Origin: an uncultured Planctomycetaceae bacterium
GTDB lineage: Bacteria > Planctomycetota > Planctomycetia > Isosphaerales > Isosphaeraceae
Assembly (NCBI GenBank): GCA_963833985.1
Contig: CAWIAD010000002.1
Location: 3,360,001 to 3,424,000 of the forward strand
DNA length: 64,000 nucleotides
Reading direction: 5' to 3'
Positions 5,766 to 30,302 of this stretch are shown here, in pieces (positions within the stretch are counted from its first letter, which is position 1; every line of letters begins with the position of its first letter). The position numbers were made by a program, and so were the translations under genes. The notes beneath the pieces are model-generated. The model was given only the letters and a program-made list of their open reading frames with translations, made no database searches and was not told the DNA's origin.

Positions 5766-5861
5766 CTCACTCGGAACACCGGGTGAGATGAGTTCTTTTT
5801 GTCCTGGTCCCGCGGGAGACGGCCCGATCTTCCGCCCTGCCATCGAGGTCCACCGCCTGCC

Positions 5862-8800
5862 GTGGATGAGCGTCGTGCCCGAATCTACGAGGATTTGCGA
5901 GGGGTCGTCACGGGCGAGCTCCATTTCGAGCCGCTCGATCGTGCCCCATACGCACACGACGCCAGCCTGTACGAGATCGATCCGCTGGGCGTGGTCGTTC
6001 CGCGCACCCAGGACGACGTCGTCACGGTTGTCCGCTACGCCAGCGAGCATCAGATTCCGCTGCACGCTCGTGGTGCGGGAAGCGATACCGCCGGCGGCAG
6101 CCTGGGCGATGGGCTGGTCATCGACTTCAGCCGCCATCTCAGGAAGATCGTCGCCATCGCCACAGACCATGTGGTTGTCGAGCCCGGTGTGGTGTTGCAG
6201 ACGCTGAATGCCGAGCTGGCACCTCTGGGCCGGCGATTGGAGCCCGTGCCCGCCAACGCCAAGATCGGTACCGTGGGCGGGATGATCGGCGTCGATTCCG
6301 CGGGCGGCCGCTCGGCGCGGTTCGGTTCCATGAGCGACCAGGTCGAGCAGCTTCGGGTGGTCCTGGCGCAGGGAGAGGTTGCGGATCTCGGCTTCAGGCC
6401 GTGGCCCGACTACGATGCTGAGGCGGTCACCTTTCCGGACCTGATCGTCCGCAAGCTTCAGAATGTCTACCGACAAAGTCAGAAGCGGCTCTCCCGGCTG
6501 ATGCCTGCCGTCCCGCGCAACCGTGCCGGTTATGCATTCGGGCGCGCAGCCGGTGCCGAGGGGGTGAACCTCGCCCGGCTGGTGAGCGGCTCGGAGGGGA
6601 CCCTTGCCCTTGTCTTGCAAGCGGTGCTCAGGACGGTGCCCCTGCCGGCGGCCCAGGCGGTCGTCGTCCTCCCCTTCGCGCGACTGGCTGACGCGGCCGT
6701 GGGGGCCAGCCTCTGCCTGGAGCTCGGGCTGGAGCCCTCGATCTGCGATCTCTACGACTGGAGGCTGCTGAGCCTGGCACGCGACGCCGATGAGTGCTTC
6801 CACGCCTGGATTGACGAGGCGGCCGAGTCGGTTCTGATCGTCGAATTCGAGGGAGACAGCCAGGACGAGGTCACCGGCAAGACGCGCATGCTTGCGGAGC
6901 GGATCGGCCGCGAAGGACTGCTGAGGTCCGACCCGGTGACCGTGCACCGCCGCGCCGAGTGCGAGCAGGTGGTGGCCCTGCGGCGACTGGCCGAACCCCT
7001 GCTGCTGAAGTCGCGAAGCCGATCCAGGCCGCTGGCGATCATGGACGACCTTGCCGTGCCGCCGGACCGGCTCGCCACGGTGCTGCACCAGCTTCAGAAC
7101 GTCCTCAAGCGGCACAACGTGCTCTGGACCTTGAATGCCTACGCCGGGGATGGCCGCATACGTCTGCGACCGTTTCTGGACCTGGCGGACCCGGCCGACC
7201 GTGCGCGGCTGGAACCCCTGACTCGTGAAGTCTACGAACTGGCAATCGACGCTGGTGGGACGGTCTCGGCGGCACAGGGCTGCGGCCTGGCCCGCACCCA
7301 GTTCTTGCCTCGCCAGTACGGCGAGCTGGTCGCGGTGTTCCGGGAGATCAAGGACGCCTTCGACCCCTCGAACCTGCTGAACCCTGGCAAGGTCGTGGGC
7401 GACGATCCTCACCTCATGCTCCGGCATTTGAAGCACTTCCCCGCGTCCCTGCCAGAATCCCAGAACGGGAACGGGACCCTCGCCACCCCCGGCGAACCTT
7501 CGAAGATCCATGGCGAGGACGCGACTCTGCCAGCTTCAGACTCGGCTGAAGGAGGCGGAGCCTGCATCCTTCCGGTCCTGCGCTGGCCCGAGCCTGGAGC
7601 GGAGGCGATGGCCGCGGCTTGCCACGGCTGCGGCGAGTGCCGCAATCTTGATCCCGCGTTGCGCATGTGCCCGAGCTACCGGGCCCATCGCCGCGAGGCG
7701 GCAACTCCCAGGTCCCAGGCCAACCTGATCCGCCAGATCGCGGTCGGGCAGATCGATCCGAAGCTCTGGGGGACCGAGCAATTCAAGGCCCACGCCGGGC
7801 TCTGCATCCATTGCAAGCTTTGTCTCAGCGAGTGCCCGGCGGGAGTGGACGTCTCCAGCTTGATGCTCGAGGCCAAGGCCGCCTTCGTCGAGAACCATGG
7901 CCTGCCGCCCAGCGACTGGGTCTTCTCGCGCCTGGAGATGTGGGCGCGGCTGGCCAGCCGTTTCCCCATTCTTGCCAATTTCCTGATGTCGCGCCGCAGC
8001 GCCCGCTGGTTGATCGAGCGCACCCTGGGAGTCTCCCGGCACAGGGTCCTGCCGCGCGTCCGGCGCACCCCGTTCACGCGCCGGGCCATGCACCTGGGGC
8101 TGGCCCGGCCGCGGCCGCACCAGTCCGGCCCGCGCGTCGTCTACTTCGTGGATGTGTACGCCAATTATTATGATCACGAGCTGGCCGAGTCGGTGGTGGC
8201 CGTGCTGCAACAGGCCGATGTGAACGTCTTCGTGCCCCCTCGCCAGCGGAGCTGCGGCATGGCCTCCTTGATCGTTGGCGACATCGACCATGCGCGTGAT
8301 CTTGCCCTGAACAACCTGCGCGTGCTGGGCAACGCCGTGCGCGACGGCTACACCGTGGTCTGCTCCGAGCCGACCGCGGCGCTGATGCTCCGGCACGAAT
8401 ATGTCAAGCTGACCGACGACCTCGACGCCGAGCTGGTCGCTCAGAACACCATGGACCTGGGCCAGTATCTTGTCGGCCTGGACGTGCGCGGCCAGCTACC
8501 CCGCCCGCACGCACCTCTGAACGCCCGCGCGGGTTACCATCAGCCCTGCCATCTGCTGCGCTGGAGGTCGGCATGCCGGGCTTCGACCTGATCCGGCACA
8601 TACCCGGACTGGATGTCGAGTTCATCAATCGCGGCTGCTCTGGAATGGGAGGCACCTACGGGCTCGGCCGCGAACAGTTCCGCACCTCGCTGCTGCCGGC
8701 CGCGAGCTGCTCCGGAGACTCAAGGACGACGACATCGAGGTGGGCGTCACGGAATGCGGCGCCTGCCGGATGCAGATGGAGCAGGGCTTGACGAAGCGGA

Positions 8801-9605: not shown

Positions 9606-12404
9606 ATGGGAAGATCCCGTAAACTGCTCTCACTGGCGCACCGCTCGGCCTGGTATCAGGCCGGCGCCGTGGTCTTCTGGCTGGCACTCCTGGCTGCCGA
9701 TCCGGCGGGCCTGTGGATCGCGGCAGCCATGCCTGGCAAAGCGACAAGCTTCCCGAGGGGACGGTCACCGAGCTGCGGATCGAGGGCAACACCACCATCC
9801 CCACGGACAAGGTGCGGGGCAAGCTGCTCAGCCGCGCCGGCCAGCCGCTCGACCAGCAAAAAGTCGAGGCCGATATCAAGAGCCTGTACGCCACCAAGTG
9901 GTTCTCCGAAGTGCAGGCGCGTTACGACGAAGCTCCGCCCCATAGCCACAAGTTCGTCCTGGTTTTCCGGGTACGCGAGATGCCCGTGATCAAGTCCGTC
10001 GAGTTCCGGGGCCGGAAGGGCGTGCCGCTCAAAGAAATCGAGGAGAATACGGACCTCAAGGTCGGCAACCGTGCCGACCCGACCAAGACCCGGCTCGCCC
10101 TGGGCCAGGTTCAGCGGCTTTACCAGGAAAAGGGCTACGAGCTGGCCGAGGTGAAGCTCATCGAGGGCGGGAATGCCGGTGACCTGAGAGTCATCTTCCA
10201 GATCTTCGAGGGCCCCAAGTTCAAGATCGCCAGCGTCGACTTCAAGGGGAACGTGTTCGCCTCCGACTCCCAGCTCTGGACCAAGATCGGCAGCCGCAAG
10301 CCGATCCTCGGCCTCCTGGGGGGCAAGTACCACCGCGAGATGCTCGAGGAAGACAAGGCGCAAGCTGACCGACTACTACCAGTCGCAAGGGTTCTTCGAG
10401 GTGAAGATCACACCCGTGACCCGGGCGGGTGCGAACCTGGGAGACATCAACCTGACCTTCGTGATCTCCGAGGGAACGCGCTACAAGGTGCGCAACCTTG
10501 TCTTCGAGGGAAACCACCAGCTCAAGACGGCCGAGCTGCGCGAGGGCTTGCAGCTGCACTCGGGCAAGCCGTTCCTCGACACGGTGCGCGAGGCCGATCT
10601 GAGATTGATGATGTCGCGTTACAACGCGCTGGGCTGCATCAAGACCGAGATCGCCTACGAGCCGCGCTTCACCAACGAGCTGGGCGTGGTCGACCTGGTG
10701 TACAAGATCGAGGAGCATGACCCGTACCTGCTGGGCGAGCTGAAGATCGTCGGCAACACACGGACCAAGGACAAGGTCATCCGCCGCGAGGCCGTGATGG
10801 CGGGTCTCTTGCCAGGCGAGGTCCTGGACAAGAACCGGATCGAGATTTTCCAGCGGCGGCTCCAGTCGCTGGGCTACTTCCACAACACGCCGGAGATGGG
10901 CAAGCCGCTGGAGATCAAGATCGTCAACGAGCGGCCCAAGGACAAGCCCTACGGGGACCTGATGATGCCGCTGCTGGGCGAGGGGGGATCGCAGGCCAGA
11001 ATGCAGGACCCGGGACCGGAGGTCGATCTGGTTCCGGCACCCGAGCCGCTCCCCGCGCCGAGTAACGTGCCCCGGCTGGAGCCGAACAACGGGCCGGCGG
11101 GCGCTGCCCCCTTCGGCGGAGGCAACCTTTTCAGTCCCGATCCGGATTCCACCCCTCCCATCGTGGTGCCACCGCCCAGGACCCCCGGCCGGCCGCCTGG
11201 CGCGGCGCCACCGCAGGGTCGGCCCTCGGCTGTGCCGCCGGTCGGGTCGGGAGAGCCCTCCGGTACCTTTCCCAGCGTGCCCGGCCTGAACATGACGGAC
11301 GTCGGGCCCGACCGCCAGGATCCGTTTCCCAATCGCGCGTTCGCGGACATCGTCACCGCCGTGGACGAGGCCCCCACCGGCCGGTTCATGGTTGGCGTGG
11401 CCGCCAGCAGCTTTCAGGGGCTCTTCGGCAACTTCACCGTCTACGAGAAGAACTTCGACCTCTTCAACTTTCCCAGGTCGTTCAACGACATCTTCAACGG
11501 GACGGCCTTCCGCGGTGCGGGCCAGGAGTTCCGCATCGACGTCCAGCCGGGCACAAACATCAACCGCTTCCAGGTCAGCCTGCGAGAACCGTACCTCTTC
11601 GACCTGCCCATCGGGGCCGGCGTCGCGGGCTACTGGTTCAACCGTTTTTACCCGGACTGGGACGAGCGCCGGGGTGGCGGCCGGTTCTCGCTTGGCCGGC
11701 AGTTCGGCACGAGCATCTACGCCGATACGGCCGTGCGGGTGGAAGACATCAATTTCTACGGCTTCCGCACGCCGGCCCCCGCGCAGTACCTGGCGGCCGC
11801 GGGCGAGTCGTTCCTGGCTTCGATCCGGCCGAGTCTCCGCTTCGACAACCGCAATAGCCCGTTCCAGGCGACGAAGGGACAGTACGCGGAATTCGCCGTC
11901 GAGCAGGGCTGGGGCACCTTCACCTGGTCCAAGTTCGACGCCGAGGGCCGTGCCTACTTCACCACCGGAACCCGTCCCGACGGGACCGGCAAGCGGTTCG
12001 TCACGCTCCGCGGACACTTCGGCATCGCCACGCAGGGCATTCCGGTCTACGAGCGGTACTTTGCTGGTAACTTCGGTAGCCTGCGCGGGTTCCAGTACCG
12101 CACCGTGAGCCCCCACGCCCTGGGCGTGCCGGTCGGTGGCGTGATGATGGCCCTGGGCTCAGTGGAGTACCAGTTCCCGCTCACCGCCAGCGATGCGTTC
12201 CAGCAGGTGGTCTTCACCGACTTCGGCACCGTGGAGGGCGACTACACCTTCACCAAGATCCGTGCCTCGATCGGTACCGGCCTGCGCATGAAGATTCCCC
12301 AGATGGGCCCGGTTCCACTGGGTTTCGACCTTGCCTTTCCCATCGCCTACGCAGAGGGCGACCGGCTGCGTTACTTCAATTTCAGCATGAGCGCCATGTA
12401 CTGA
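9606..12404 (+). CDS. bamA: Outer membrane protein assembly factor BamA; frameshifts near 9722 and 10358
   Basis: POTRA repeats (IEGNTTI, VGNTRTKDKVIRRE), barrel motif SLRGF and an aromatic C-terminal strand; three ORF pieces join into one gene. Confidence 0.9.
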
Positions 12405-14457: not shown

Positions 14458-16822
14458 TCACGGCGGCAGGTCACGGTCGAGGTCGCCGCCGATCCATGCC
14501 GGGTCGGTGTAGCCGTAGCGCGACATCACGGCGACCACGGCGTCCGGATGCTGGACGAGGATCTCTGCGCCCTCCACCAGCGCTTCGGGCGCGCGGCCAG
14601 CAGCCGGTCCAGCAGTAATCGCCGCGTCGCAACGGCCTTCTGGCTGGGTTGACGCGTGAGCAGGTTAACCAGGCGCTTTCCCGCCTCGTCGGCCGGCGCC
14701 CGCGCGCGGTGGCGACCTGCCGGGCGGCTGCCACCAGGCCCTGCGCGTCGCTGCGAGCCCAGTCGAGCACCGCCTGGTTCAGAGTCAACCGGTTCACCCG
14801 GGGCGGCTCCTTGGGCAGCGGATCGGGGGCATCCAGCAAGAGCTCGAGCGCCAACGCCCGGGAGACGGCCACGGGGTCGGCCACGGACACGACGCGGAGA
14901 CCGTCCAGTTGCCCGGGCCTGCGCTCGTACCAGGGATGCATGGCGAAGAGCAGCCGCGTGAATGCCGAGGACTTGGAATCCTGGGTCTGCATCCAGACGT
15001 AGCCGATCCTGTCGTACTCCCGGTAGTGCTGCTGGACATCCTCGCCGAGCTTGATGTCGCCGCGGAGCTTGCCCAGCGTTTGCAGCTCCTCGAAGGTCAT
15101 GGGATTGGTCATATCGTTGGGGAAATCGACCTCGGCCCCGGTTGGCAGCCGTGCGTTGATCTCATCGAGCGTCTGGCCGTTGAAACCGTCGAACCAGTAG
15201 GTGAGCTCGAAGCCGCGACGCCACGCGCCCCGCGGCCCTCCGATCAGGGTGTTGTAATACGAAAGCTCGAACGGGTGGATCCGCGCCAGCTCCACGGCGG
15301 CAGGGACGATCACGACGAGTCCCAGGCCCCATGCGGCGAGTGCCGCGGGCAGGCCCGTGCGCAGCGCGAGTGCCCGGGCCAGGGCCGCGGTTCCCCACCC
15401 CGCGTAGGCTGCCAGAAAGAAGAAGGTTGGTAGGAAAAGGCGCACGCCATCGTGGGCGGGCGTGGTCGGCAGCATCCGCAGCGCGGGGAGTGCCAGAAAA
15501 TGGACCAGGAAGTAGAGGGGCAGCCGGTCCTGGCGCATCCGCCGAAAGGACCAGACCAGGCCCGCCACCGAGGCCCCCAGAATCGTCACCGGCACCGTGA
15601 TCGCCAGCAAGACCCAGCCGTTGTGCCAGGGGAGCGTGTACTCGTAGATCTGCCCGAAGTAGATGATCTGGATGTCGGGCAGCGCGGCCCGGCGATTACC
15701 CGAGAGTGTGTAGTAATGAGCGAGCCGGATCAAGGTGTCGCGCCACCAGGCCGGGTTCCCCAGCCAGCCGACGAAAGGAGCGAAGGCCAGAATGGCGGTC
15801 CAAGTCTCCAGCGCGGGCCGTTCCACGCCCCAGAGCTTGCTGCCCGGGAAGACCCGCCCGAGCAGCCTGCGGATCAGCCAGACAAGGAGCGGCAGGGCCA
15901 GGATCGCTCCGGGCAGGTCGCTCGTGGGCCGGTTGATGAACAGGTTCGCCTGGGCGGGAGGGGGAAGCTGCCTCTGCATGCCCTGGATCTCCAGGAAGGC
16001 CAGTCCCAGCGGAGCGAGCATGAGCCCGGATGTGACCAGCCCGTCAATCCAATCCGCCCGGCTGCCGGTACGCCAGAGCGAGCGCGGCAGGTGGCCGAGG
16101 ACGAGCCACAGCAGGAGGGGCAGCAGCACGCCGACGGCCGCCAGCTTCTCCACGAAGGCCAGGCCCAGGAGCACCCCGACCGCCACGCGCCACCAGCGGG
16201 CCTTCTCCTCGTACAGGCCCTTCCAGAACGCCAGCGCGGTCGCCGCCCAGAGCAGCAGGCCGGGGGTGTCGGTGTCGACCAGATGGGCCTGACCGTAGAG
16301 CCGCGGCATGAGCAGCAGCGCGCCGGCCATCACCAGCCCGGCGGTTGTCCCATAACGTCTGGCCAGGAAGCCGTAACCGATGGCCACGGTGAGGGCGAAC
16401 TCGATCACCGACGCCATCCGCCGCGCGGGGATGTCCTGCATCCACGAACCGAAAAGGGCGTGTGTGGCCAGGTTCATCTGGCCGGCGAGGGGAGGGTGGA
16501 AGTTGATGCCGAAGCGGCCGTACGGCCAGTAGTACAGCAGCGTCTGGGGATCAAGCAAATCGTGGACCTCGCTCCACGAGCGGGCATGACGAAGCTGCTC
16601 CCACCACTGGGCAGACATCACCTGGCTGTAGCGGTAAGCCGGCTCATCCCAGGTCAGGCCGATATCGCCCGTGGTCGGCACCAGCACCACCAGGGCCCCC
16701 GCGCACACCAGGAGCGGCGACGGTCTCCAGCGTGCCTTGCCGGACTGAAGCCGGCTGGCGGTATCCGTGTCCGTCCGGTCCGCGTGCGTGCGTTCTGCGG
16801 TCAGCGCGGGCGCGGTCATCAT
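14458..16822 (-). CDS. GT-C fold glycosyltransferase (ArnT/GT39-like); two C-terminal frameshifts near 14705 and 14585
   Basis: TWDEPAY, NFHPPL, HDGVRLFLP and PFELSYYN motifs with many TM helices; the repaired end reads ...RYGYTDPAWIGGDLDRDLPP*. Confidence 0.82.
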
Positions 16823-16887
16823 GCGGGGTCCTGACTTGCGATCGAGATCTCACCGAACCACCGCAGATTATCATAGACCAGATCCGA

Positions 16888-17733
16888 TCAGACATGCACG
16901 CCCAGCACGCGGCGGAAAGCCAGTGCCGCAACCATGGAGACCGCAAACCAGTAGATCACCCAGGTATCGGTGCCACAGGTCCAGGCGGACCGTTCTGGGT
17001 AGGCAATGGCGATGGAGCGGACCGGCGAGCCGGTGCCGAAGGGGGCCTCCCCGGGGTTGAGGAGGACCTCCAGCAGGTCGCGGCCCGGGCGGAGGGCGCT
17101 GACGCGCAGAAAGCCGTCACCGACGGCCAGTTCCTTCTCATAGCTCTGGCTGCCCGTGTCGAAGACCAGGCGGTGCACGCCGCTCTCCCTGGCCTGGATC
17201 CTCCAGAGCAGCTCACCCTTGCCGCGCACGTGCACGGGGCCGGCCATCACCGTGGCGGCCGGCGTTGGCCGGAGCGTCACTTCCGGCCAGGCTTTATTGT
17301 CCGCGCAGTCGAGTGCCAGCCGGACGACGGCGTCCTCTCCCACTCGCAAGGGGCGGGCCTGGTACCAGAGCGAGAGCTGCGCCAGCAGCAGTACCACGGG
17401 CAGGGCCATCACCAGCATCGGCACGAGTGCCAGCATGAGGAGCTGCAAACCTCCGCCGAGCATCCGTCCCTGGGCGCGCAGGGTCACGGCGGTGCTGTCC
17501 TTGAACAGCCGCAGGGCCAGCAGGTTGGCGCTGATCTGGTCGCGCACCCGTTGCACCGCGGCCTGGTTCGAGGTGTGCTTGAAGACGACGAGCAGGCCGA
17601 TGCCCGTCACCGCCGAGATGAGCGTGGCGGAGACCCATCCCGGCACGATCGAGATTGGCGCAAGCATGAGCCGGCCCAGCGCGCTGGCCGCCAGGTTCAG
17701 CCAGGCCAGAATACGGAGGAGCGCTGTGGTCAT
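16888..17733 (-). CDS. Membrane protein, possibly DUF106/EMC3-TMCO1-like
   Basis: TM helix, amphipathic segment, PMLVMALPVVLL helix, soluble beta-rich insert, then C-terminal WVIYWFAVS..FRRVLG. The CDS is solid; the family is inferred. Confidence 0.65.
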   Translation of the reverse strand: MTTALLRILAWLNLAASALGRLMLAPISIVPGWVSATLISAVTGIGLLVVFKHTSNQAAVQRVRDQISANLLALRLFKDSTAVTLRAQGRMLGGGLQLLMLALVPMLVMALPVVLLLAQLSLWYQARPLRVGEDAVVRLALDCADNKAWPEVTLRPTPAATVMAGPVHVRGKGELLWRIQARESGVHRLVFDTGSQSYEKELAVGDGFLRVSALRPGRDLLEVLLNPGEAPFGTGSPVRSIAIAYPERSAWTCGTDTWVIYWFAVSMVAALAFRRVLGVHV

Positions 17734-17914
17734 TCAATGTATCCCAGGCCGCGCAACTGGTTGGTGACGTGGGCGTCCTCCTCCTTCACCTTCATCCGCG
17801 CGACCTCCTTCTCCACGCAGGCCGCGATGAACTCCTCCACACAGCTGTAGCCGGCGGCCTCGGCCGTGCGCTGGCGCGCTCGTACAGTCCCGATTCGATC
17901 TTCAGCTTGACCAT
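17730..17914 (-). CDS. Small protein (about 61 aa), ribbon-helix-helix-like with an LRGLGYIE tail; frameshift near 17873
   Basis: Strong RBS AAAGGAGA before ATG 17914; repaired sequence MVKLKIESGLYERAQRTAEAAGYSCVEEFIAACVEKEV...NQLRGLGYIE; ATGA overlap with the next gene. Confidence 0.75.
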
Positions 17915-17962
17915 GCGATTCTCCTTTCCGAGCCACGCTCTGTCAGCTCCGAGCACGTTCTG

Positions 17963-20008
17963 TCAGCCACGGAGCACGTTCTTGCCCACCATCTGCGAGG
18001 GGACATCAAGCCCGAACTCGGAGAGAATCGAGGGCGCGATGTCCACCAGCGACGGTGATCCCCGGGCGATGCGCCGGTTGCAGAAGAGCACGCCCGGCAC
18101 CTCGAGTGCGTCGGCGCAATGGTCGGCGCTCCAGGCCGAGTCATTGTCGAGCAAGACCTCCTCGGTGAGGTCGCCCAGGCAGGTGGCCCATGAGGCACGG
18201 TAGCCGCGGGCGTAGCCGATGATGAGGTCCGGTGCCAGTCCGGTCGCGTTCCCTGAATAGATCTGGTCCGAGCGGTAGACACCGCGGATCACGGGCTGGC
18301 CGTCGCGATCGGTCAGGGCCGTGAGCCGGGCGGTCAACTCGGCAAGCACGGCCTCGCGCTGCTCTCCCGGCTCGACGATCCCGTCGCGCTCGCGGCCTTT
18401 CATGTTGAGGTAGAGCCCGTTGATGCCCAGCCCGTAGGCGATGGTCTGGGACCAGTCGGCGTCGCGGAGGATGGAGGTGCACTCGGGCGGGCCGAGATAG
18501 CCCCAGGCGCGGAGCCAGGAGTTCAGGTTGAACTGGCGGCCGAAGTTGGCGAAGCCGTGATCGCTCATCACCAGGATGGTCGCCGTCTGACCGTAGCGGT
18601 CCAGCAGGTCGCCGATCACCGTGTCGAGCTTCTGGTACAGCCGCTGGACCTGGCCGAACCGCGCCTTCGCCTCCGGGCCGGTCCGGATCGGGTGCCGGGC
18701 GTCGGAATCCCACCAGAAGATGTGCGACTGGAGATCGCTGCTGGAGAAGTAGAAGAACAGGAGCCCGTCCTCGTAGTTGTCGATCGCGTATTCGAACAGC
18801 CGCAGCCGTTCTTCCAGCACCATGTCGGCCTGCCGGGCGTACTCATCGTCGGAGAAGACGCCGTTGGAGCGCGCCTTGTGGTCCTCCTGAAAGCCGGTCG
18901 TGTAAAAAGGCCCCAGCGCCCCGGCCACATCGGAGACGAACGAGGTCGGCTCGGACATCTTCTGGGCTGGTCTGGCCGGGTCCATGTTCACCGGGGTCAC
19001 ATAGAGCTTGAAGACCGGAGCGACCTCTTGAAGGTAGAACCGGACGATCCCGGAGACGTGTTGCCCGGGCAGGAACGAAGGGGTTGAGAGGGCGAAATCC
19101 AGCTTCGTCCACGGGCTCCACTCACCGGCCCCGAGCACGATCGTCCGCCCCTGGAGCTCGATGGCCGCGGCATTCGCCGCGCGGTCGCGATGGACCAAGA
19201 AGTCGACCAGGATCGGCCGCGGCTGTTTTCGCAGGCTGTCGTCCGGACCGACAAGCCGAGCGCTCGACGTGTCATCGTCGAACCGGAGGCGCGATCGCTT
19301 TCCCCCGCCCTCTTCCACGGGCTCGGCCGGCCCGTCCTCGGCGAAGTACTGGTAGGTGCCGTAGGTGCCGAGCATGTCGGGCGTCCCCATCCCGCAGAGG
19401 CAGCGATGATGGCCGTGATGCGAGGGGCTGGCCGGATAGTTCGACGGCAGGTCGTAGAAGGTTGACGGCACGCCGGCCGCGTCGAGATAGTCCCAGAACG
19501 GTGTGCCCTGCCGGCGCAGGACCGTTGCCGGCGGCTTGTGGTTGAAGGGCCAGAAGTCCAGCGGGATGCGGTGCTCGCCCAGCTCCCAGGCGCCCTGGCC
19601 GGGAACCGTTTCGGCCGCGGAATAAAAGGGTGCGCACTGCTCCTCGGGATGGCGGTGGATGAAGTCGAAGATCCCGTGCGAGCCCGGCCCCGCGCCATTG
19701 ATGAAGTTGGCCCAGGCGACCGGGCTCTGCGGCGGAACGCTTGTGCCCAGGCCGCTGAAGCCGCCGCCCGACCGGAGCTTCGCCAGGTTCGGAAGCATGC
19801 CGGCGTCCATCATCCGCCCGCACAGCCGCGGGTCCATGCCGTCGACGCCGACGATGATCACCTTCTTGCCCAGGCTCCGCGAGACATGGCTGCCGCGCCC
19901 CAGCCAGTGGTTGCCCGCGCCCAGAGCGGCCACTCCGGCGGCCGTCGCGGCGGCGCCCTTGAGAATCGTCCGGCGGTTGATGCTCGTGTCCGCTCCGCTG
20001 CCAATCAT
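17963..20008 (-). CDS. Alkaline phosphatase superfamily (type I phosphodiesterase/NPP-like) protein with Tat signal
   Basis: Twin-arginine leader INRRTILKG; GVDGMD, PPQSPVAW, SDLQSH, SDHGF and WSADH. Confidence 0.88.
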   Translation of the reverse strand: MIGSGADTSINRRTILKGAAATAAGVAALGAGNHWLGRGSHVSRSLGKKVIIVGVDGMDPRLCGRMMDAGMLPNLAKLRSGGGFSGLGTSVPPQSPVAWANFINGAGPGSHGIFDFIHRHPEEQCAPFYSAAETVPGQGAWELGEHRIPLDFWPFNHKPPATVLRRQGTPFWDYLDAAGVPSTFYDLPSNYPASPSHHGHHRCLCGMGTPDMLGTYGTYQYFAEDGPAEPVEEGGGKRSRLRFDDDTSSARLVGPDDSLRKQPRPILVDFLVHRDRAANAAAIELQGRTIVLGAGEWSPWTKLDFALSTPSFLPGQHVSGIVRFYLQEVAPVFKLYVTPVNMDPARPAQKMSEPTSFVSDVAGALGPFYTTGFQEDHKARSNGVFSDDEYARQADMVLEERLRLFEYAIDNYEDGLLFFYFSSSDLQSHIFWWDSDARHPIRTGPEAKARFGQVQRLYQKLDTVIGDLLDRYGQTATILVMSDHGFANFGRQFNLNSWLRAWGYLGPPECTSILRDADWSQTIAYGLGINGLYLNMKGRERDGIVEPGEQREAVLAELTARLTALTDRDGQPVIRGVYRSDQIYSGNATGLAPDLIIGYARGYRASWATCLGDLTEEVLLDNDSAWSADHCADALEVPGVLFCNRRIARGSPSLVDIAPSILSEFGLDVPSQMVGKNVLRG

Positions 20009-22308
20009 GAGACCACCTCGGCCAGTTCTTGCGCGGGCTTGCTCGACGGTAATGCAGGCTCATCCCCGATCACCAGCGCCCTGCCGTCCATGTAGTCCGG
20101 AACCGGCACGCCGAAGAGTTTCAGTACCGTGGGTGCGATATCGATCAGGCGCGGGTTCGGGGAGGCGATGGGATGGTTGGAAAAGAGGATCCCGGGCACC
20201 AGCGACGGATCCACGCAATGATCGCCGCTCCACGCCTTCCGGTTCGAATGGAAGACGCTTTCGGTGGTGCGGCCGATGGCCGTCTCCCAGGCCACGCGAT
20301 AACCGCGCTGGTAACCGACGATCAGGTCCGGAGCATTTTCGCTGTAGGGTCCCCGGTAGAACCGGGAAGCGATGTAAACCCGCTTGACCGCACTCTCGCC
20401 GGTTTCCGGGTCGCAGAGGCCGGTCAGCCGCTCGACGATCTCCTCGCGGAGCCGGTCTGCCTCGGCCCCGGGCGACACGATTCCCTGCGCAAACTTGTCC
20501 TTCACGTTCAGGTAGATGCCCGCAAGGCCGATCGCGAAGGCGCGGGTGCGGCTCCAGTCCACGCCCGCCAGATGGTCGGCGTCGCCCTTGCCGGCGAGCA
20601 CGAGATAGCCGTTCTCTTGCAGCCAGCGGTTCAGGTCGACTCCACGCCGGAACGGACCGAAGCCATGGTCCGAAAGCACCAGCAGCAGCTCGTCCTTGCG
20701 CCGGCAACAGGCGGACGTCCTGCCCACCAGGTCGTCCATCCGGCGATAGAGATCCTCGATCACATGCCGGCCTTCCCGGACGGCCGGATCAGGACGCGCC
20801 GGATGCCGCTCGTCGATATCGCGCCAGAACGTGTGCTGAAGGCGGTCGGTGCCGTCGAACACGCACGCGACAAGGCCGCTCGGCACCTTCTCCAGCGCAT
20901 CGAAGAACATGGCCTCGCGCTCGCGGTCCATGTCCAGGCACTGCTGAATGAACTGGTCATCGCTGATCACGTGCTCGTTGAGCGCCCAGGTATCCTCGGC
21001 CAATCCCAGCGTGGCGAACGGACCTTGCTTCCTGGCGAGATAGACCGGGTACACCGCCGGATACCCCACGGGCATCACCGCGTGCTCGGGGTCGATGTTG
21101 ATCGGCGTGACATAGAGCTCGAACTCCGGCTCGGTGCTCAGCAGCAGGAACTTGCAGAGCCCGCGCACCGTTACACCGGGGACCACCCGGAACGACACGC
21201 GGATCCAATCCGTGTAGACATCCCGGGCAAGCTTGAACGTCTGGCCGCAGATCTTCAGTTTCGCCTGGCCCGGGCCCGTGATCGTGACGGCGAACGGAAG
21301 CCTCATCTCACCGTGCCGCGGCCGCAGGGGGTCCTCCGGACCAACGAGCGCCGCGCGGACCACGTTCCCGACCCGCCTGACGCGATGGACGTCGCCGCCG
21401 GTCCGCTCGCCCTCGGCTTGCGCACGGGTCGTGTAGAAAGCGAACATGCCCTGCGTGCCGCGCAGGTCCGGTACGCACATCGCGGAAAGCAGCACGCCCC
21501 TGAGCTTTTCAGGCGGGTAGGTAATCGGCACGCGCAGGATGCAATTGAAGATGCCGTAGCCGCTGAGGATGCTCCAGAAAGGCTGGCTCTTACGCAGCAG
21601 GCGCACCTCGGCCTTCCCGAGCGGAATGCGGAGCGGGCCGATCCGGATCGCGCGGCGCGGCGGATGGACCTCCACCGAGCTCAGCTTGGCGTGGTAGTGC
21701 GTCAGGTCGGGCGTCAGAAAATCAAAGATGTTGTGCTTGCCGGGGTTCACGCCGGTCTGGAACGTTGACCAGGCCACCGGCGAAAGCGGGGGCACAGTCG
21801 TTCCCAGCGGCCGGAAGCTCCCCTGGGAGCGAAGGGCCGCCAGGTGGGGGAGCTTGCCCTCGGCCAGCATGCGTTCGGTCAGCTCGTGATCCATGCCGTC
21901 CAGGCCCAGGATGACGATCCGCCGGAACCGGCTGCGGTTCAGTCGCCGCAAGGAAAGCAGCGATCGCACGAGCAGGCGGACGGGCCAGGTGAGGAAGGTC
22001 AGAAGCGCCGAGAACACCGCGGCGAAGACCGTGAAGAACGACCCCGCCAGCGCGAACCCCGCCCCCGGCCCGATATAGGCGTGCGCCTGGCCGGGCGCCA
22101 GTAGTAAAAGAAGCAGCACCAGCAGCACCAGCCGCCCGCGCTTGCGAGCCATCGATCGCGCGGCAGCGGCCCGTACTTGCGTCCGCTGCGCCCCGCCTGG
22201 AGTTCCGTCCGCCGCCTGCGCCCCGAGCCGTTCCCCCGCCGATTGTGAGGGAGCCGCGGTCAGGCCCGCCCCGCGCGAATGACGGACGCCGGAGAGCCCA
22301 TTCATCAT
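20005..22308 (-). CDS. Alkaline phosphatase superfamily (NPP-like) protein, membrane anchored
   Basis: AHA-YIGPG plus TM helix; GLDGMD, PPLSPVAW, TDRLQH, SDHGF and WSGDH; the start could be near 22152 (MARKRG). Confidence 0.88.
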   Translation of the reverse strand: MMNGLSGVRHSRGAGLTAAPSQSAGERLGAQAADGTPGGAQRTQVRAAAARSMARKRGRLVLLVLLLLLLAPGQAHAYIGPGAGFALAGSFFTVFAAVFSALLTFLTWPVRLLVRSLLSLRRLNRSRFRRIVILGLDGMDHELTERMLAEGKLPHLAALRSQGSFRPLGTTVPPLSPVAWSTFQTGVNPGKHNIFDFLTPDLTHYHAKLSSVEVHPPRRAIRIGPLRIPLGKAEVRLLRKSQPFWSILSGYGIFNCILRVPITYPPEKLRGVLLSAMCVPDLRGTQGMFAFYTTRAQAEGERTGGDVHRVRRVGNVVRAALVGPEDPLRPRHGEMRLPFAVTITGPGQAKLKICGQTFKLARDVYTDWIRVSFRVVPGVTVRGLCKFLLLSTEPEFELYVTPINIDPEHAVMPVGYPAVYPVYLARKQGPFATLGLAEDTWALNEHVISDDQFIQQCLDMDREREAMFFDALEKVPSGLVACVFDGTDRLQHTFWRDIDERHPARPDPAVREGRHVIEDLYRRMDDLVGRTSACCRRKDELLLVLSDHGFGPFRRGVDLNRWLQENGYLVLAGKGDADHLAGVDWSRTRAFAIGLAGIYLNVKDKFAQGIVSPGAEADRLREEIVERLTGLCDPETGESAVKRVYIASRFYRGPYSENAPDLIVGYQRGYRVAWETAIGRTTESVFHSNRKAWSGDHCVDPSLVPGILFSNHPIASPNPRLIDIAPTVLKLFGVPVPDYMDGRALVIGDEPALPSSKPAQELAEVVS

Positions 22309-22318
22309 CGCTGCCCTC

Positions 22319-24474
22319 TCACTTCGGCTCCGGTGCCTTCGGCTCCAGCTCGTCGATGTTCTTACCAGGCGTCAGCTTCTTGCCGGCGAGGCCCGGGTAG
22401 TCCGGATCGTAGCGGTAGGCACGGAACACGCTGCCTCCGCCCGGAGGCCCGCCGAATCCCGGAGGCCCGCCAAATCCCGGAGGCCCGCCAGGACCACCGG
22501 GAGGCCCGCCAGGACCACCGGGAGGCCCGCCAGGACCACCGAATCCGGGAGGTCCCCCGGGACCGCCACCGGGCGGGGGACCACCGTCAGGTCCGGGACC
22601 GGCACCAGGTGGTCCTCCCGGACCGCCCGGCCGACCATGACCGAACCCCGGCGGGCCGCCCCGCGCAAAGTCGTCGCGCATCCGCTTGAGCTGGTCTTTC
22701 TGCCTGGCCGAAAGCAGCGTGTCGAGCTTCACGTCCACCCGCTTCTGCAACTGCACCACCTGGCTTTTCTGATCGGGGGTGAGCTTCAGCAAGATCTGGG
22801 TGGGAAGCGTCATGAGCTGGCCGGGAGGGGTGAACGCCCCGGGCCCGAAGCTGCCGCGAGTCTCGAGCCTTTTATGCTGGTCGGCCGACAGCAAGGCCTG
22901 CAAGCTGTCGCCCACTTCCTTCTGGAACGCGTCCAGGTCCTTGCGCTGCTGGGACGAAAGGTTGAGCATGTCTCTGAGGAAGAAGGGGAGCACGTCGCCA
23001 GGCCGGGGCGGTCCGAACGGTCCTCCCGGTCCCATGCGCTCCTGCACCGGATTGACGTACTTCCAGACGATCTTGCCCGCCGGCGTGACCTCGAAGATCG
23101 TGCCGTTGTTCCCCGAGCAGATGAGCGTATCGCCGTTGGGAAGCCGCTGGGCACCGGAGATCGTGGCCGAGAAGAAGTCGGACCTCTTCGGTGCCGAGTA
23201 GCTCCAGAGCGGCTTGTCGGGTCCGAAGGGTGCACCCTCGGCGCGCGTGTAATGTCCGGAGGAATCTACCGGCAAAGCAATCTCCTCGACCGACGAGTAC
23301 TCGCCGCCGGGACGCCTCATGCCGTTGTTGTAGAGCAGGATGTGGCCCGCACCCGGTCGTCCTTTGGGAATCCAGTGCGTGTTGTGCTGATGGAAGAGCT
23401 GCTGATCCTGCGCGGATCCCGCACGATAGCGCGCGGGTTTCCCCAGCGGTAGAGCAGGTCGCCTCCCTTGCCGGAGCGGCCGCCCTGATGCCCGGCGGCT
23501 TCCGCGGTCGTGGTGCTGTGGTCGATGATCCAGAACTCGCTGAAGCCATGCACGCTCATGACAATCTGGTCCAGTTCCGGGTTGTAGTCCACGCCGTTGA
23601 TGTGGGTCCAGTCCGGCTCGAACCGCTGCGGTCCCCCCTTCCTGCCCGCCGGAGAACCGCCCAGGTAGCCGATCGACTTGAGCTTGTCGATCCCCGCCTT
23701 GGTGGCCAGCAAGGGCGCGATCGCGTTGTCGTCGTAGTTGATGTCCACCCGCTCCGGATGCTCGGCCACCTTCCCGTAGTTTGGTTTGGCCGCATCGTAA
23801 TCCTGGATCAGGTGGTCCCAGAGGTGCCACTCCCAGACAACCTCGCCGGTCGTCTTGCCGGTCGGCTTCACTTCGTAGAGCGCATCGAGCTGGAACGGCC
23901 GGTCGCCGGTCAGCTCGGCCTTGCGGCCGGCCGCGACGGCCTCCTCGGGCGTCTTCCGGTCCCAGACGATGAGCACGACATGGCCGCTGGGCAGCTTCAT
24001 GATGTCGTGATGGGGAAGCTGCTTCTCGTTGGCGAAGCGGTAGTCCCACACCAGGGAACCGTCCCAGGTGAACTCCTGGACCCGGCCACCGGCACCAGGG
24101 CCTCCGCCAAACGGCTGGTCCCGCAGCTCTGCCGGTCGCAGCAGGTGACCATTTTCCAGCAAATAAGCGCTCAGGGCGGGGTGCGCATCGCTATCCCAGG
24201 TCCGTACGGCACGTCCCTGCATGTCGATCAGGTAGGTCTTCAGCGACTTCATCGGTGCCAGCAGAGTATACCCCTGGAACGCTCCGGGATCGTTCGTCAC
24301 CAGGCCCCGCTTGACCTTCGGCTGGTCGCTCGACCCGCCCGGACCGTCCGCCTGCGCGGCACCCGCGCCCTTGATCGACAAGGCGAGGCCAGCGGCGAGA
24401 ATGGCAATGGCCGTGGAAAGCGTTGCCGCGATCTGCATCGCCGGACGCATCCAGCTCGTGGTCCGCACTCTCAT
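22319..24474 (-). CDS. Aryl-sulfate sulfotransferase (ASST family) with helical and Gly-Pro-rich C-terminal extension; frameshift near 23428
   Basis: Signal peptide; GYTLLAP, HHD, DWTHINGVDY, YRWGNP, QHNTHWI, SGAQRLPNGDTLI and VFRAYRY. Confidence 0.87.
22435..22665. repeat. Coding GGPPG(F)/GGP tandem repeats
   Basis: 18-bp and 21-bp units such as ccggaggcccgccgaatc and ccgggaggcccgccaggacca within the sulfotransferase tail. Confidence 0.85.
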
Positions 24475-24542
24475 GGAAACGACCCTCCCCGGACGGCTCC
24501 TGGCATGTTGAAGGGACCTGCTCGGTCACCGAGCGTCCGAGG

Positions 24543-24568
24543 ATTCTAGCAAGGCCCCGCGCGGCCTT
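24543..24568 (-). promoter_or_regulatory. Extended -10 promoter with adjacent palindrome
   Basis: TGcTAGAAT on the minus strand about 70 bp upstream of the sulfotransferase, abutting AAGGCC-N6-GGCCTT. Confidence 0.45.
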
Positions 24569-24841: not shown

Positions 24842-25174
24842 ATGAAGAGAGCCTTTTTGACATTCGTTCTGGGCGGCTTGATGGGCTCGTTCCTGCTGGC
24901 GGGCGATGCTCAGGCCTGCCACAAGAAGAAGTGCACCTGCGCCCCGACCTGCGTGACGGTCATGCCGGCCCCGGCTCCCGCTCCCGTGTGCGAGCCGACG
25001 TGCGCGCCGAAGAAGAAGTGCGGGATGTTCTCGTGCTTCAAGGGCATGAAACTCTGCCACAAGAAGGCCACGTGCGTGACATCGGCACCCTGCGAGACCG
25101 TCGCCTATTCGGCCCCCATGACCTATGCGGCTCCCGCCGTTTATTCCTCCCCCCAGGCGTCGGCTCAGCACTGA
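24842..25174 (+). CDS. Small secreted Cys/Lys/Pro-rich protein
   Basis: RBS GGAG, signal peptide ending AQA, mature part CHKKKC...CAPKKKC...CHKK. Confidence 0.85.
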   Translation: MKRAFLTFVLGGLMGSFLLAGDAQACHKKKCTCAPTCVTVMPAPAPAPVCEPTCAPKKKCGMFSCFKGMKLCHKKATCVTSAPCETVAYSAPMTYAAPAVYSSPQASAQH

Positions 25175-25296: not shown

Positions 25297-27017
25297 TCAC
25301 CTCGACAGCGCTGGCAGGCCGGATTCCCGCTCCGCCTTTGCGTACTCCGTCATCGCAAAGATCCAGACGAGCGGCACACCGAACTTCGGGACCGCGTAGG
25401 CCGGGCTTGCATGCTCTACCAGCCACCGGTCCATCGCCGACCAGGCGCTGGGCGATTCTGAAGCACGTACCATGCGGGCAGGCCGCGGTCGAGCGGCTCC
25501 AGCCGGTGCGGCAACTCGCCGACTTGCCGCAGGTACAGCCAGGACGTGGGGAAGCTTGCAAAACGGACCGTCTCACCAGGATGCGTCTGCTCCCGCAGCC
25601 ACTGCCGCGCCCGAGCATCCAGCGCGTCCCAGTAATACGTGGGTTCCATGCCCAGGCGCACGGCGCCGGGAAGGCCACAGGCCAGCGGGCTGAAGTACGA
25701 TAGCGGGACGGGCATGAAAAGGCAGACGCTGGCGACGGCCTCGGCCATGGCGGCCGCCACCAGCATCCGGGCACGGCCACCGAGGGCGTCGATGGCCTGC
25801 CTCGCTCCCATCGCAACCAGGAACGAGAGAACTCCGAAGGCCGGCAGGAAGAGGCGCACACCGTCGTGACCGGGTGTGTGCGGCAAGGCCCTGAGCACGA
25901 TCAGCAGCACCCAGTTTGCCACGACCAGCACGCCGATGCGGTCGGTCTGGCGCTGGCGAAGTCCCCGCAACGTACCCAGTATGGCCAGCAGCAGCAGGCC
26001 GACCGGGGTCACCAGGACGGTCCAGACCAGCGTGTTGTACCAGGGGAGCGATTCTCGGGGCGTGAGATAGACCAAGCCCAGGAACTGGACCGGGATGGGG
26101 ATGGTCTGCCCTCGTGAGAGGTTCGAGTCGAAGAAACGGAGCACGCCCGCCAACGGCTCGGTCCACCAGGGGGGATTGCAGATCAGCAGCACGCCGAGAG
26201 CCAGCGGCAGCCCGAGCAACAGGGCGAGCGCTGCGCGGCGGTCGCGCGTCCATGCCGTCCAGAACAAGAAGGGCAGAGGCAGGAACCAGCCGGTGAGCTT
26301 CGTCGCCTGGGCACAACCCAGCACCAGCCCGAAGACGAGTGTGGCTGCCGCATGCGGTCGGCGGTCGCGGCCCGAGCCTGATCTTCCCGCATCCGACCCT
26401 GGCGGCACCGCCTCGGCGAAAGCCATGATCGCCAGGGCCCAGAGCGACGTGAGCACGCCGTCATAGGCAGCGTAATGTCCGTGGCCGAAGAGGTTGGGCT
26501 GAAAGACCCAGGCGGCAGCAGCCGCCAGCCCGGGCACCAGGCCCCAGCGCCGGGTGCAGAACCAGAACAGGAACCCGGCCGTCACGCTGAAGAGCGCGAT
26601 GGGGCCGAGCCGCGCGCGGGGCAGGTCCTGCCAGGAGGGCGTTAGCAGGTCGCCCAGCAGACCCAGCAACGCATAAAAGGGCGGGTGGCCATGGGGCTCG
26701 GCCCGCGCGAACGGCCAGAAGTAGGCGAGCACCTGGGTGTCGAGGAGCAGCTTGCCCCGCGTATTGACGGCTTCCGGAGCAGGGGCGGACGCTCCCGCCT
26801 GCTGGACCAGCTCCAGGGTGGGAGGCGTCCAGTGCCTGGCGAAATCGGCCGGATCTCGCAGGGCGTGGAACCAGGTACGCAGCCTGGCCTCGCGGCCCAG
26901 GGTGTAGCCCTCGTCCCAGACGATCGCCATCCGCGGTTCGGTGGCCAGCATGATGCCGAGGGTGGCAAGGCCCACCCCCAGGCTCGCCATCACCAGACGG
27001 CCATCAGAACGTCTCAT
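25297..27017 (-). CDS. Second GT-C (ArnT/GT39-like) glycosyltransferase; frameshift near 25448
   Basis: VWDEGY, GHPPF, HDGVRLFLP, LSYFS and EPTYYWD; paralogue of 14458-16822; the repaired end reads QNRPGAWS...LSR*. Confidence 0.82.
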
Positions 27018-28837: not shown

Positions 28838-30302
28838 ATGATGATAGGGCTTCAGACCAAGATCTTGCGCCTCGATCGTGCAGCGAAGACTCCGGAGTTT
28901 TCCTTGCAGCCCCGAGCCGAACGACCCAGCGGACCGATCTCGCGGGTGGTGGGCCTCTACCAGTCGCTGCTCCGGAAGACCCTGGAGCATTTCTTCCCCA
29001 ACGCCATCCTGGAGGTCGAGGGCGACCGGAGCGTGATCGACTGGGATGGCTCGCCCGAGGAGGAACATTTTCGCTTCAGGGACGACCTCGACGGGATCGG
29101 GCTCCAGATCGACTGGCTGGGCACGCGCTTCAACTTCCGGCCCGAGAGCCCGGCACCCTTGCTGCCGCTGGAACGGCGGCTGGTCGAGGTCGTCGTCCAG
29201 GCCCTCGACCACCGCTTCCGCGGACTCTTCGACCTGAGCCTGGATGATCGCCTTGTGCGGTTCGAGTACCTCAATGAAGATCTCATCGTCTCCGACTTCC
29301 TCCAGCCGCCCAGTCCCTCCCGGGTACCCGCGGCGCTCGAGCGCACTGCGCGTGGCTGCCCTGTCGACCTATGAGAACCGGCGGCTCTCCACCGGTGCGC
29401 TCTTGCTGGGAACCGATCAGGATCCGGCCGACCCCCATCGAAAAAACACCCAGGGCGCACCCCGGTTCAACGCCCGGCTGACGGCCATCAAGGGCTTCCA
29501 TCGCCTCTGCGACGGCGTTCAAACCCAGTTCATCGTCGACGTTCAGGGCAATTTGCTGCGCATGGCCGACATCGAGCAATGGGCGCGCCTGGTGCAGGGC
29601 TCCGAGCCGCCCGAGCATCCCTGTCCGCGTCAGTACGAGAGCCATGCCAAGGCCACGCGCACGGGTGGCCACGTCTGCCTCATGCTCACCCCGAGCCAGG
29701 AGATCAAGGTCTTCGCCGGCGGAACCATGGTCTTCAGCCTGAGCGATGCACGCTGGCGGCTGCTCGATATCCCCAGCAAGTTCGCGGCCTGGCGCCAGGC
29801 CGTCGGCACTTCCACGCCCCCCGACCTCGCTCTCTGGCTGTTCCAGGCCGCCCTGAACCTGAGCGAGGCCCGTACCGGAGCCCTCTTCGTGGTGGTTCGC
29901 GACCAGGAACGCGCGGTCCGCGACCTGATTCCCCCGGCCGATCGGATGACCGAGGAGGAAGTCGCCGACGATCCGCAGGACCCGGAAAACCTCTCCCCGC
30001 GGATGGCCAAGCGCGCGCTGCACCACGCCGTCCGAGGCGCCACCCTCTGCGACTTCGAGCCCGCGGTGCTCGAGGCCATCGCCAGCCTCGATGGCGCCGT
30101 GGTGGTTGGTTCGGATGGCCGCCTGCTCACCTTCGGTGCGATCCTCAAGATCGCCCCGGACACGCTTCAGCTCGTGCGCTCGGTGCAGGGAGCGCGCACG
30201 CTCGCCGCCCTGGCGGCCTCACAGTTCGGCCCGGTCCTGAAGGTCAGCCAGGACGGCTACCTGACGATGTTCCTCAAGGGGCGCCGGGTCTGGGAGCTGT
30301 GA
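28838..30302 (+). CDS. DisA_N/DAC (diadenylate cyclase) fold protein with N-terminal extension; frameshift near 29342
   Basis: GALFVV, ASLDGAVVV, FGAIL, GARTLAA and KVSQDG. Confidence 0.75.

Follow-up and report, generated by a model that had tools for sequence, protein, structure and literature searches.

The 64,000-nucleotide stretch considered here (the window; positions 3,360,001 to 3,424,000 of contig CAWIAD010000002.1, assembly GCA_963833985.1) is part of the 10.2-Mb, two-contig genome of an uncultured Planctomycetaceae bacterium, and carries six minus-strand genes for which an initial annotation had proposed a joint role in envelope modification. Comparison with related loci suggests that four of these genes form a conserved core which, together with an arylsulfate sulfotransferase (ASST), may relay activated sulfate out of the cytoplasm on the tyrosines of a short peptide tag. 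The co-orientation and tight spacing reported at the outset hold, with intergenic gaps of 10, -4, 47, -4 and 65 bp, as do the family assignments: Pfam recovers an ASST (PF05935, E 2e-11), two phosphodiesterase-like proteins of the alkaline phosphatase (AP) superfamily (PF01663, E 5e-29 and 4e-28) and a GT-C glycosyltransferase (PMT_2, E 4e-15), and the Oxa1-like protein is recognized by a profile match to 5c8j. NCBIfam offers no family-level name for any module gene. The features are as follows.

22319..24474, minus strand: exported ASST-family beta-propeller with a C-terminal helical and Gly-Pro region (PF05935), an accessory client of the module
23665..23682, minus strand: LKSIGY motif in the loop just before the catalytic WxHxN of the ASST (sequence, loop alignment)
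20005..22308, minus strand, likely start 22152: PDE1, a long enzyme of the AP/nucleotide pyrophosphatase-phosphodiesterase (NPP) fold, catalytic domain predicted to be cytoplasmic (PF01663, sequence, sulfotransferase-PDE1 fusions)
22057..22077, minus strand: YIGPGAG motif of PDE1, with Tyr in 20/20 and 22/22 PDE1 rows
17963..20008, minus strand: PDE2, a PDE1 paralogue predicted to be periplasmic (PF01663; twin-arginine signal)
17730..17915, minus strand: ribbon-helix-helix (RHH) microprotein of about 61 aa ending in LRGLGYIE, Tyr codon 17739-17741, frameshifted (profile, alignment)
16888..17733, minus strand: D106, a DUF106/Oxa1-superfamily protein (profile, model and structure comparison)
14458..16822, minus strand: GT-C (PMT_2) gene, a resident neighbour outside the module (absent from related loci, present in family relatives)
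24543-24551, minus strand: weak extended -10-like site TGCTAGAAT upstream of the module (sequence)

Two sets of loci were compared. The first, found with D106, holds 38 loci (29 from the first search and 9 from relatives). The second derives from an even phylum sample of 251 genomes, 29 with full-length D106 and 3 with partial matches; it holds 29 loci, 27 full-length (those other than the window and G038) and 2 partial. The conserved core, PDE1-PDE2-microprotein-D106, is complete in 30 of the 38 loci (6 are cut by contig ends and 2, L027 and L055, deviate) and in 26 of the 29 (1 is cut and 2 lack PDE1). First-search loci come from records titled Planctomycetota, Acidobacteriota, Thermodesulfobacteriota and Poribacteria, and the closest named relatives of D106 are Isosphaeraceae proteins. 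The cluster as first proposed therefore stands in part: four of its genes co-occur across D106-seeded loci, but the GT-C gene accompanies them at none of the related loci, and the ASST does so in 17 of the 38 loci as an accessory.

The microprotein consists of an RHH domain and a tail (Atlas names at 0.94-0.95). A beta-alpha-alpha pattern of the CopG/NikR-like kind is recognized in its tandem-repeat member P0121 (RHH_1, E 1.2e-6), and the microprotein profile itself gives just weak NikR matches (E 0.15 or worse). This profile matches 893 cluster representatives, and among the best 150 of them the tail tyrosine is kept in 141 of the 142 aligned rows that cover its position. LxxLGY ends eight of the 140,299 stop-to-stop open reading frames of this genome. 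A control window gave 7, which means no enrichment by count alone; of the eight, five encode short paralogues with an AP-superfamily (AlkP) domain and one encodes the microprotein. The motif also travels in fusions with the sulfotransferase (ST) that adjoins the core in many relatives and uses 3'-phosphoadenosine 5'-phosphosulfate (PAPS). AlkP fusions make up 81 of the best 120 (of 5144) longer ST homologues, and 78 of these carry LxxLGY, nearly all between AlkP and the TPR region (32 clusters at 60% identity; shuffle rate 19/8100); the other three are ST-PDE1 fusions in which the motif is absent. Two fusions of CysC, the adenosine 5'-phosphosulfate (APS) kinase, to ST (P0283, P0284) have it as a C-terminal tail. 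Exported lipoproteins with an LxxLGY tail flank several Sat-containing loci, and a sulfatase-like protein is also tailed. The microprotein is proposed here to be a sulfotyrosine carrier and a tether between ST and PDE1.

Two observations weigh against a purely chemical role for the tail. Seven of nine tails appended to APS kinases have lost GY, so the tail helix can serve without its tyrosine, and neighbouring CysD and DUF2061 proteins also end in LGY. Both would suit a machine for sulfation whose LxxLGY helix does no more than dock, bringing ST, APS kinase and clients into complexes. Sulfate itself would then travel on a lipid or a small aryl compound, much as in the Cpz8/Cpz4 relay, and D106 would be a dedicated insertase for the N-terminal helix of PDE1. 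The D106 partner in a sister system (described below) points the same way, having a similar cleaved signal and conserved transmembrane (TM) start with no Tyr. However, the tyrosine is near-invariant on carriers and clients (141/142 tails, 78/78 fusions and 57/57 of the ASST loops discussed below), and the tail and the ST acceptor-site residues both enter the contact list of a predicted complex, which makes docking alone an unlikely account, albeit one to be taken seriously.

Several other observations touch on the tag. P0135, seemingly a fusion of microprotein and PDE2, was set aside as likely read-through of a frameshift. When LGY-tailed sulfatase-like proteins were checked for CxPxR, the single tailed case caught had TxPxH. 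Four membrane-anchored sulfatase-like proteins of this genome have TxPxH for CxPxR (C1:2425029, C1:2823492, C2:5119080 and C2:5122130), two of them adjoining a third long AlkP (L048), and these four are candidate transferases. At L074:7280-11456 and related loci, a second RHH-LGY protein precedes Sat (11 loci), and a divergent LGY-tailed helical lipoprotein is encoded.

PDE1 and PDE2 are 37% identical, and both keep the Ser nucleophile and bimetal ligands (DG, D..H, SDHG, DH) that place them in the AP superfamily; the formylglycine sulfatase motif C/SxPxR is absent from both, and neither copy in this genome has an LxxLGY tail. The PDE1 fold resembles NPP, PafA and PhnA. Fold and metal ligands are shared with this PF01663 clade, whereas a large inserted domain, the paired opposite topology predicted for the two proteins and the nucleophile motif set them apart: SPVAW aligns to the TFPNH of NPP, with Ser in place of the Thr nucleophile of NPP proper. 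A phmmer search of PDE2 against PDB found nothing.

The start of PDE1 is more likely at 22152 than at 22308, which makes the gap to the ASST about 166 bp instead of 10. Ahead of the catalytic domain come a signal-like segment (optional), the invariant A-YIGPGAG, a single TM helix and a basic stretch. Maturation is predicted to leave the Tyr of YIGPGAG as the N-terminal residue, exposed on the outer face, and the catalytic domain is predicted from sequence to be cytoplasmic. In two distinct ST-PDE1 fusions (P0293, P0372) the PAPS enzyme lies upstream of PDE1, and because two hydrophobic segments separate them, PDE1 would be on the same side as ST. The Tat-signal match of PDE2 falls below the curated Pfam cut-off, and PDE2 export signals are of the Tat, Sec or lipoprotein kind depending on lineage.

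These family ties leave room for phospho-chemistry, in which the PDEs would be NPP-like hydrolases or phospho-transferases (clearing 3'-phosphoadenosine 5'-phosphate (PAP), APS or nucleotides, for example, or moving phospho-groups on both sides), the sulfur genes would be loosely linked and the microprotein would be an RHH autoregulator. The full bimetal ligand set and NPP/PafA fold agree with this, and so do the RHH matches, the CysQ gene nearby and the second RHH-LGY gene before Sat in 11 loci. Yet the nucleophile motif is SPVAW rather than TFPNH, and the ST fusions, the ASST tyrosine loop and the co-occurrence of loop and core would go unexplained. Phospho-chemistry is thus judged improbable, and a sulfotyrosine relay is the preferred reading.

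The ASST of the window keeps the equivalents of AssT His252, His356, Asn358 and His436, and has His at the Arg374 position. It resembles E. coli AssT (3elq) in its propeller, in those four residues and in export, and is unlike it in the changed Arg374 position and an inserted tyrosine loop. Thirteen of 14 cluster ASSTs carry the motif in a loop just ahead of WxHxN. Among 78 ASST copies parsed from fetched loci, a subset of all ASST matches (3 could not be anchored), 57 have a loop of 32-85 aa with low-complexity flanks and keep GY in every case (56 by script, one by eye), whereas GY occurs in none of the 18 with a short linker. An Arg near the Arg374 site is found in 12 of the 57 looped versus 9 of the 18 short-linker forms, the looped ones having mostly His or Pro. 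The C-terminal part (22319-22950) contains two helical repeats and GGP repeats that are kept in looped planctomycete ASSTs.

Looped ASSTs and the core tend to co-occur. In genomes with a parsed ASST, a looped form is present in 30 of 31 that have the core versus 5 of 13 others, and in the phylum sample, where unfetched copies are unclassified, in 22 of 29 core genomes versus 5 of 222 others. Strong ASST orthologues occur in exactly 12 of 61 relatives, those with the D106 core, often as several dispersed copies. Other long AlkPs occur in the five non-core genomes with a looped ASST, and those whose N-terminus was read are exported; in three of the five a neighbouring AlkP has a GY tail. In genomes without D106, GY-tailed AlkP-domain proteins lie beside long exported AlkPs (L202:701-3616, L208:5911-7947 and L209:5528-7630; in the L202 protein, LxxLGY is N-terminal and there are several TM segments), and such pairs are possibly an alternative relay. 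According to one report, ASSTs accept Tyr peptides, and what most of these enzymes do physiologically is little understood (PMC13426309).

Sulfate-activation or sulfotransfer genes are present at 53 of the 67 related loci. In the first set, at least one such gene occurs at 34 of 38 loci (ST 28, CysD/CysN 2, ASST only 4), and the four loci without any are cut short upstream; counted by adjacency, PAPS ST, the commonest partner, is found at 28 of the 38, Sat-CysC with CysQ at 5 and CysD/CysN at 2. In the second set, 19 of 29 loci have sulfate genes (APS kinase with or without Sat 18, ASST 1) and 2 of 29 have an adjacent PAPS ST. The partner ST of relatives, about 195 aa long, has SULT and TPST matches, scores above the PF13469 cut-off and contains an invariant or nearly invariant GLPRSGTS. 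At many loci without ST, the PAPS genes have as neighbour a gene for a short, predicted cytoplasmic AP-fold protein (of a 318-aa type between Sat and CysC in 10 loci, of another type in 3, and a similar one in L026 and L029), and by analogy with the archaeal AP-fold proteins Agl30/31 these proteins may replace ST. The Sat-CysC gene of this genome lies elsewhere, away from the module.

Because PAPS ST and PAPS-synthesis genes adjoin the core, sulfate is preferred over phosphate and outward transfer over removal. The initial annotation had the cluster moving sulfate or phospho-substituents onto or off surface glycoconjugates; what survives is sulfate-type handling at the envelope by the conserved module, with phosphate and removal less favoured. 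That the module transfers sulfate in some manner is considered probable. An inward relay can also be envisaged, in which aryl sulfates from the environment would supply the ASST with sulfuryl groups and ST, running in reverse, would make PAPS for assimilation. The ST and ASST reactions are reversible, and ASST paralogues are numerous and dispersed. Nevertheless, PAPS synthesis (Sat, CysC, CysDN) is encoded at the loci along with the PAP hydrolase CysQ, and both would pull outward; the PAPS_reduct-family genes found with a CysD seed are only CysD beside CysN (sulfite reductase was not searched for). Inward flow is accordingly rated highly improbable.

A predicted complex bears on the outward sulfotyrosine relay. 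PDE1 (residues 52-680 of the first alignment row), ST and microprotein, modelled with our own alignments and a monomeric RHH, scored 0.65 versus 0.15 for the best control; among reference pairs, 116 of 157 solved ones and 2 of 215 mismatched ones reach the mark for such scores, rates that are only rough for our own alignments. At least 37% of contacts recur between runs, and the confidence of the partners (predicted local distance difference test, pLDDT) is at least 75. The best pairs set the AGYSS turn of the microprotein against PDE1 residues 117-123, 172-174, 585-586 and 669-671, where K123, S173, P586 and Y/H671 are conserved in PDE1 and not in PDE2. The contact lists include tail residues 46-61 and ST residues 12-13, 53-54, 73-76 and 102-126, Arg13 and Lys53 among them; Arg13 belongs to the PAPS loop, and the catalytic His of SULT aligns close to 73-76. 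The model supports binding, with the microprotein docked on PDE1, and the contact lists can be read as placing its tail in the ST acceptor site.

The Oxa1-like character first assigned to D106 is confirmed by a profile match to MJ0480/Ylp1 (5c8j, E 2.9e-8), which puts the protein in the DUF106 branch of the Oxa1 superfamily. Its sister paralogues pass the PF01956 cut-off and align with it over the full length (hhalign 96%); a Pfam search with the window D106 alone gave no hit. Three TM segments (33-51, 98-116 and 259-277) are arranged as TM1, cytosolic coiled coil, TM2, immunoglobulin (Ig)-like outer domain and TM3. The top VIA match of the model (pLDDT 89.9) is chain 8 of 7tut, which we take to be TMCO1, a chain of the multipass translocon; the Z score of 11.1 (root-mean-square deviation 3.5, 127 aligned, residues 30-281) sits below the approximately 13 asked by the tool for helical folds. 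Foldseek gave no match at E 0.001, its weak rows being Ig-like domains. D106 has Ylp1/MJ0480, TMCO1 and EMC3 (DUF106, PF01956) as relatives and is unlike them in being bacterial, dedicated to an operon and equipped with an Ig-like domain between TM2 and TM3. One paper describes DUF106 as archaeal and eukaryotic (PMC5868721).

In a sister system (L091-L101, e.g. L092:9205-17426 and L098:4060-12164), D106 paralogues lie beside a PEP-synthase-like enzyme at 11 of 11 loci, and two of these paralogues pass the PF01956 cut-off. A pyrroloquinoline quinone (PQQ) beta-propeller bearing a conserved N-terminal TM motif is usually present, and L098 also has an FG-GAP protein. This system is possibly a phosphoryl counterpart.

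In the preferred reading, the ASST, both PDEs, the microprotein and D106 together would relay activated sulfate outward from cytoplasmic PAPS as sulfotyrosine on LxxLGY tags. First, a PAPS sulfotransferase would sulfate the tail Tyr of the microprotein; this enzyme would be the adjacent ST in most close relatives and the distant homologue in this genome, and elsewhere a short AP-fold protein may substitute. With its RHH turn seated on PDE1, the microprotein would then let its tail pass the sulfuryl group to the PDE1 Ser nucleophile. The group would next cross the membrane with the help of D106, either on the outward-facing N-terminal Tyr of the YIGPG helix moving in an Oxa1-type groove or on a lipid. 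Periplasmic PDE2 would load the Tyr of exported LGY-tagged clients. Finally, the loop sulfotyrosine of the ASST, itself an aryl sulfate, would be the donor for sulfating an envelope or secreted acceptor. Such a relay is suggested because tyrosines on flexible tethers occur on both sides of the membrane together with Ser enzymes of predicted opposite topology, because PAPS supply and PAP removal share loci, and because ASST donors are aryl sulfates. Its chemistry is deduced from gene order, co-occurrence, fusions, motif conservation, family membership and predicted topology and complex formation. The probability that the relay as a whole is correct is put at roughly 0.5. Crossing of the membrane specifically on the N-terminal Tyr of PDE1 is tentative. 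It is also doubtful, though conceivable, that LxxLGY is a general sulfuryl-carrier tag, with the group going from PAPS to the tag Tyr, the PDE1 Ser, the N-terminal Tyr in the Oxa1 groove, the PDE2 Ser and then the clients.

A number of points count against the relay. Doubt attaches chiefly to the patchy occurrence of ST, to the descent of the PDEs from phospho-hydrolases and to the relay being deduced from sequence and models. Within the phylum sample, the ST family (E 1e-30) was found in 8 of the 29 core genomes with full-length D106 and in 2 of the 3 with a partial match, so the first step needs a substitute elsewhere, and the one ST homologue of this genome (C2:5851025-5851885) is unlinked, 2.5 Mb away in a polyketide synthase (PKS) cluster. 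The nearest solved relatives of the PDEs (NPP, PafA, PhnA) are phospho-hydrolases, and AP enzymes with two metals transfer sulfuryl groups poorly. The membrane-crossing step is the least certain. In the predicted complex, tail-to-ST residue pairs are not among the best pairs listed. PDE1 is missing in L067 and L076, the microprotein in L055 and L067, and both PDEs and the microprotein in L027; also, the genomes are related, so the counts overstate independence. Of 10 genomes in which the ASSTs sampled appear to have no loop, 5 nonetheless have long AlkP homologues, and genomes with looped and with loopless ASSTs cannot be told apart by a long AlkP alone.

Known systems offer partial parallels. 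RaxST and RaxX reportedly form a bacterial case of PAPS-dependent Tyr sulfation; the proposed relay would share this chemistry, but RaxX is the end product. Cpz8 is said to be an ST that feeds the ASST Cpz4, as the ST would here, although through a small-molecule shuttle. Cpz4 is described as the ASST half of the two-step Cpz sulfation (PMC13426309). For acyl groups, DltX and PatA are described as providing an acyl-Tyr shuttle: in Dlt (DltB-DltX-DltD) and PatA/PatB, an invariant-Tyr microprotein or fused motif hands the group to a Ser enzyme across the membrane, and this motif, like the LxxLGY tag, is free in some systems and fused in others (PMC12148441). These systems differ from the module in the acyl group, the MBOAT and SGNH folds and an FxYxxF motif on a membrane peptide, whereas LxxLGY sits on a soluble RHH protein and the tag occurs on both membrane sides. 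Neither an MBOAT and SGNH pair nor FxYxxF was found among the module's genes, and Dlt/Pat is an analogy only. In Halobacterium, the AP-fold proteins Agl30 and Agl31, one membrane-bound and one soluble, act as sulfotransferases and are needed for sulfation (PMC11980604). They resemble the PDEs in these respects, by description, and differ in belonging to an archaeal N-glycan pathway and in their sulfatase-like folds; the accessible account mentions no Oxa1 protein, RHH protein or ASST, and PAPS does not appear in its main text. The claim that no pathway of this composition had been described agrees with the literature covered, mostly open-access papers without their supplements, in which neither the module nor the LxxLGY motif nor a protein sulfuryl shuttle was found described. 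Overall, the parts of the module belong to known families, and the system matches no known kind.

The GT-C gene requires separate treatment. Its seeds have no match in any of the 38 D106-found or 29 phylum-sample loci (0/67 together). The gene is present in 22 of 22 same-family relatives, where it adjoins its paralogue. In all eight same-genus regions fetched, the match to 24.7-27.6 kb of the window, which holds the second GT-C gene, is joined to the match to 14.4-16.7 kb across about 0.4-0.7 kb, versus 8 kb in the window. Since relatives join both GT-C flanks in this way, sequence comparison indicates that insertion of a module of about 8 kb split a GT-C pair already resident there, and that the GT-C gene is an unrelated neighbour rather than a module member. 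The repeat search found only Gly-Pro coding repeats and chance-level pairs, with no terminal repeats seen at the insertion ends, and the module has the same GC (0.66-0.69) as its flanks. Shared orientation and the 65-bp gap had favoured a six-gene operon combining glycosylation with modification, the unit originally envisaged. Given the split pair and the absence of the gene from related loci, such an operon is extremely improbable; as a conserved unit it is already refuted, and local read-through is possible at most.

The GT-C tandem (window 14458-16822 and 25416-27017) is conserved in the family, with an MFS transporter gene downstream and genes for a GNAT acetyltransferase and a tyrosine-phosphatase-like protein upstream. 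At the insertion boundary, in a region kept in relatives, lies a plus-strand gene (window 24842-25174); its product of 110 aa is rich in Cys, Lys and Pro, has a signal peptide and matches no Pfam family.

The initial annotation had also placed the genes behind an extended -10 element. The TGCTAGAAT site exists upstream of the module, but its TGnTAnnnT pattern occurs 17 times in the window and a promoter scan did not list it. The separate promoter suggested for the gap upstream of the GT-C gene fared similarly: TATGATAAT (16867-16875) occurs only once in the window, but was not listed either. Promoter and terminator scans of the window gave results near chance.

Assembly frameshifts interrupt the ASST near 23425, the microprotein near 17870 and the GT-C gene at two breaks near 14800 and 14600. 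Homologues of these genes are intact in other genomes, and BamA (window 9713-12404) is likewise divided between two overlapping frames; for these reasons the breaks are probably long-read sequencing indels. An FAD oxidase gene (window 5799-8591) and a DAC gene (28838-30302) also look broken, as indel errors in an assembly with many frameshifts would explain. Elsewhere in the genome, the PKS cluster L046 (C2:5835000-5855800) encodes two LGY-tailed short AlkPs, methyltransferases, a carrier protein, the only close ST homologue, TPR proteins and HlyD, and is a candidate sulfated-polyketide pathway.

The module bears on how bacteria sulfate extracytoplasmic molecules where there is no PAPS, and on the natural donors of ASSTs. 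D106 extends the DUF106 branch to bacteria, within pathway-dedicated operons. If the relay is correct, a physiological donor would be named for one class of ASSTs, and many LGY-tailed proteins now regarded as phosphodiesterases or sulfatases would be recast as sulfotransferases. An Oxa1-fold protein would gain a role in group transfer, with a sister system driven by phosphoenolpyruvate (PEP) doing the same for phosphate. As the tag is short and portable, it could also lead to the re-annotation of a widespread AlkP-TPR-sulfotransferase class.

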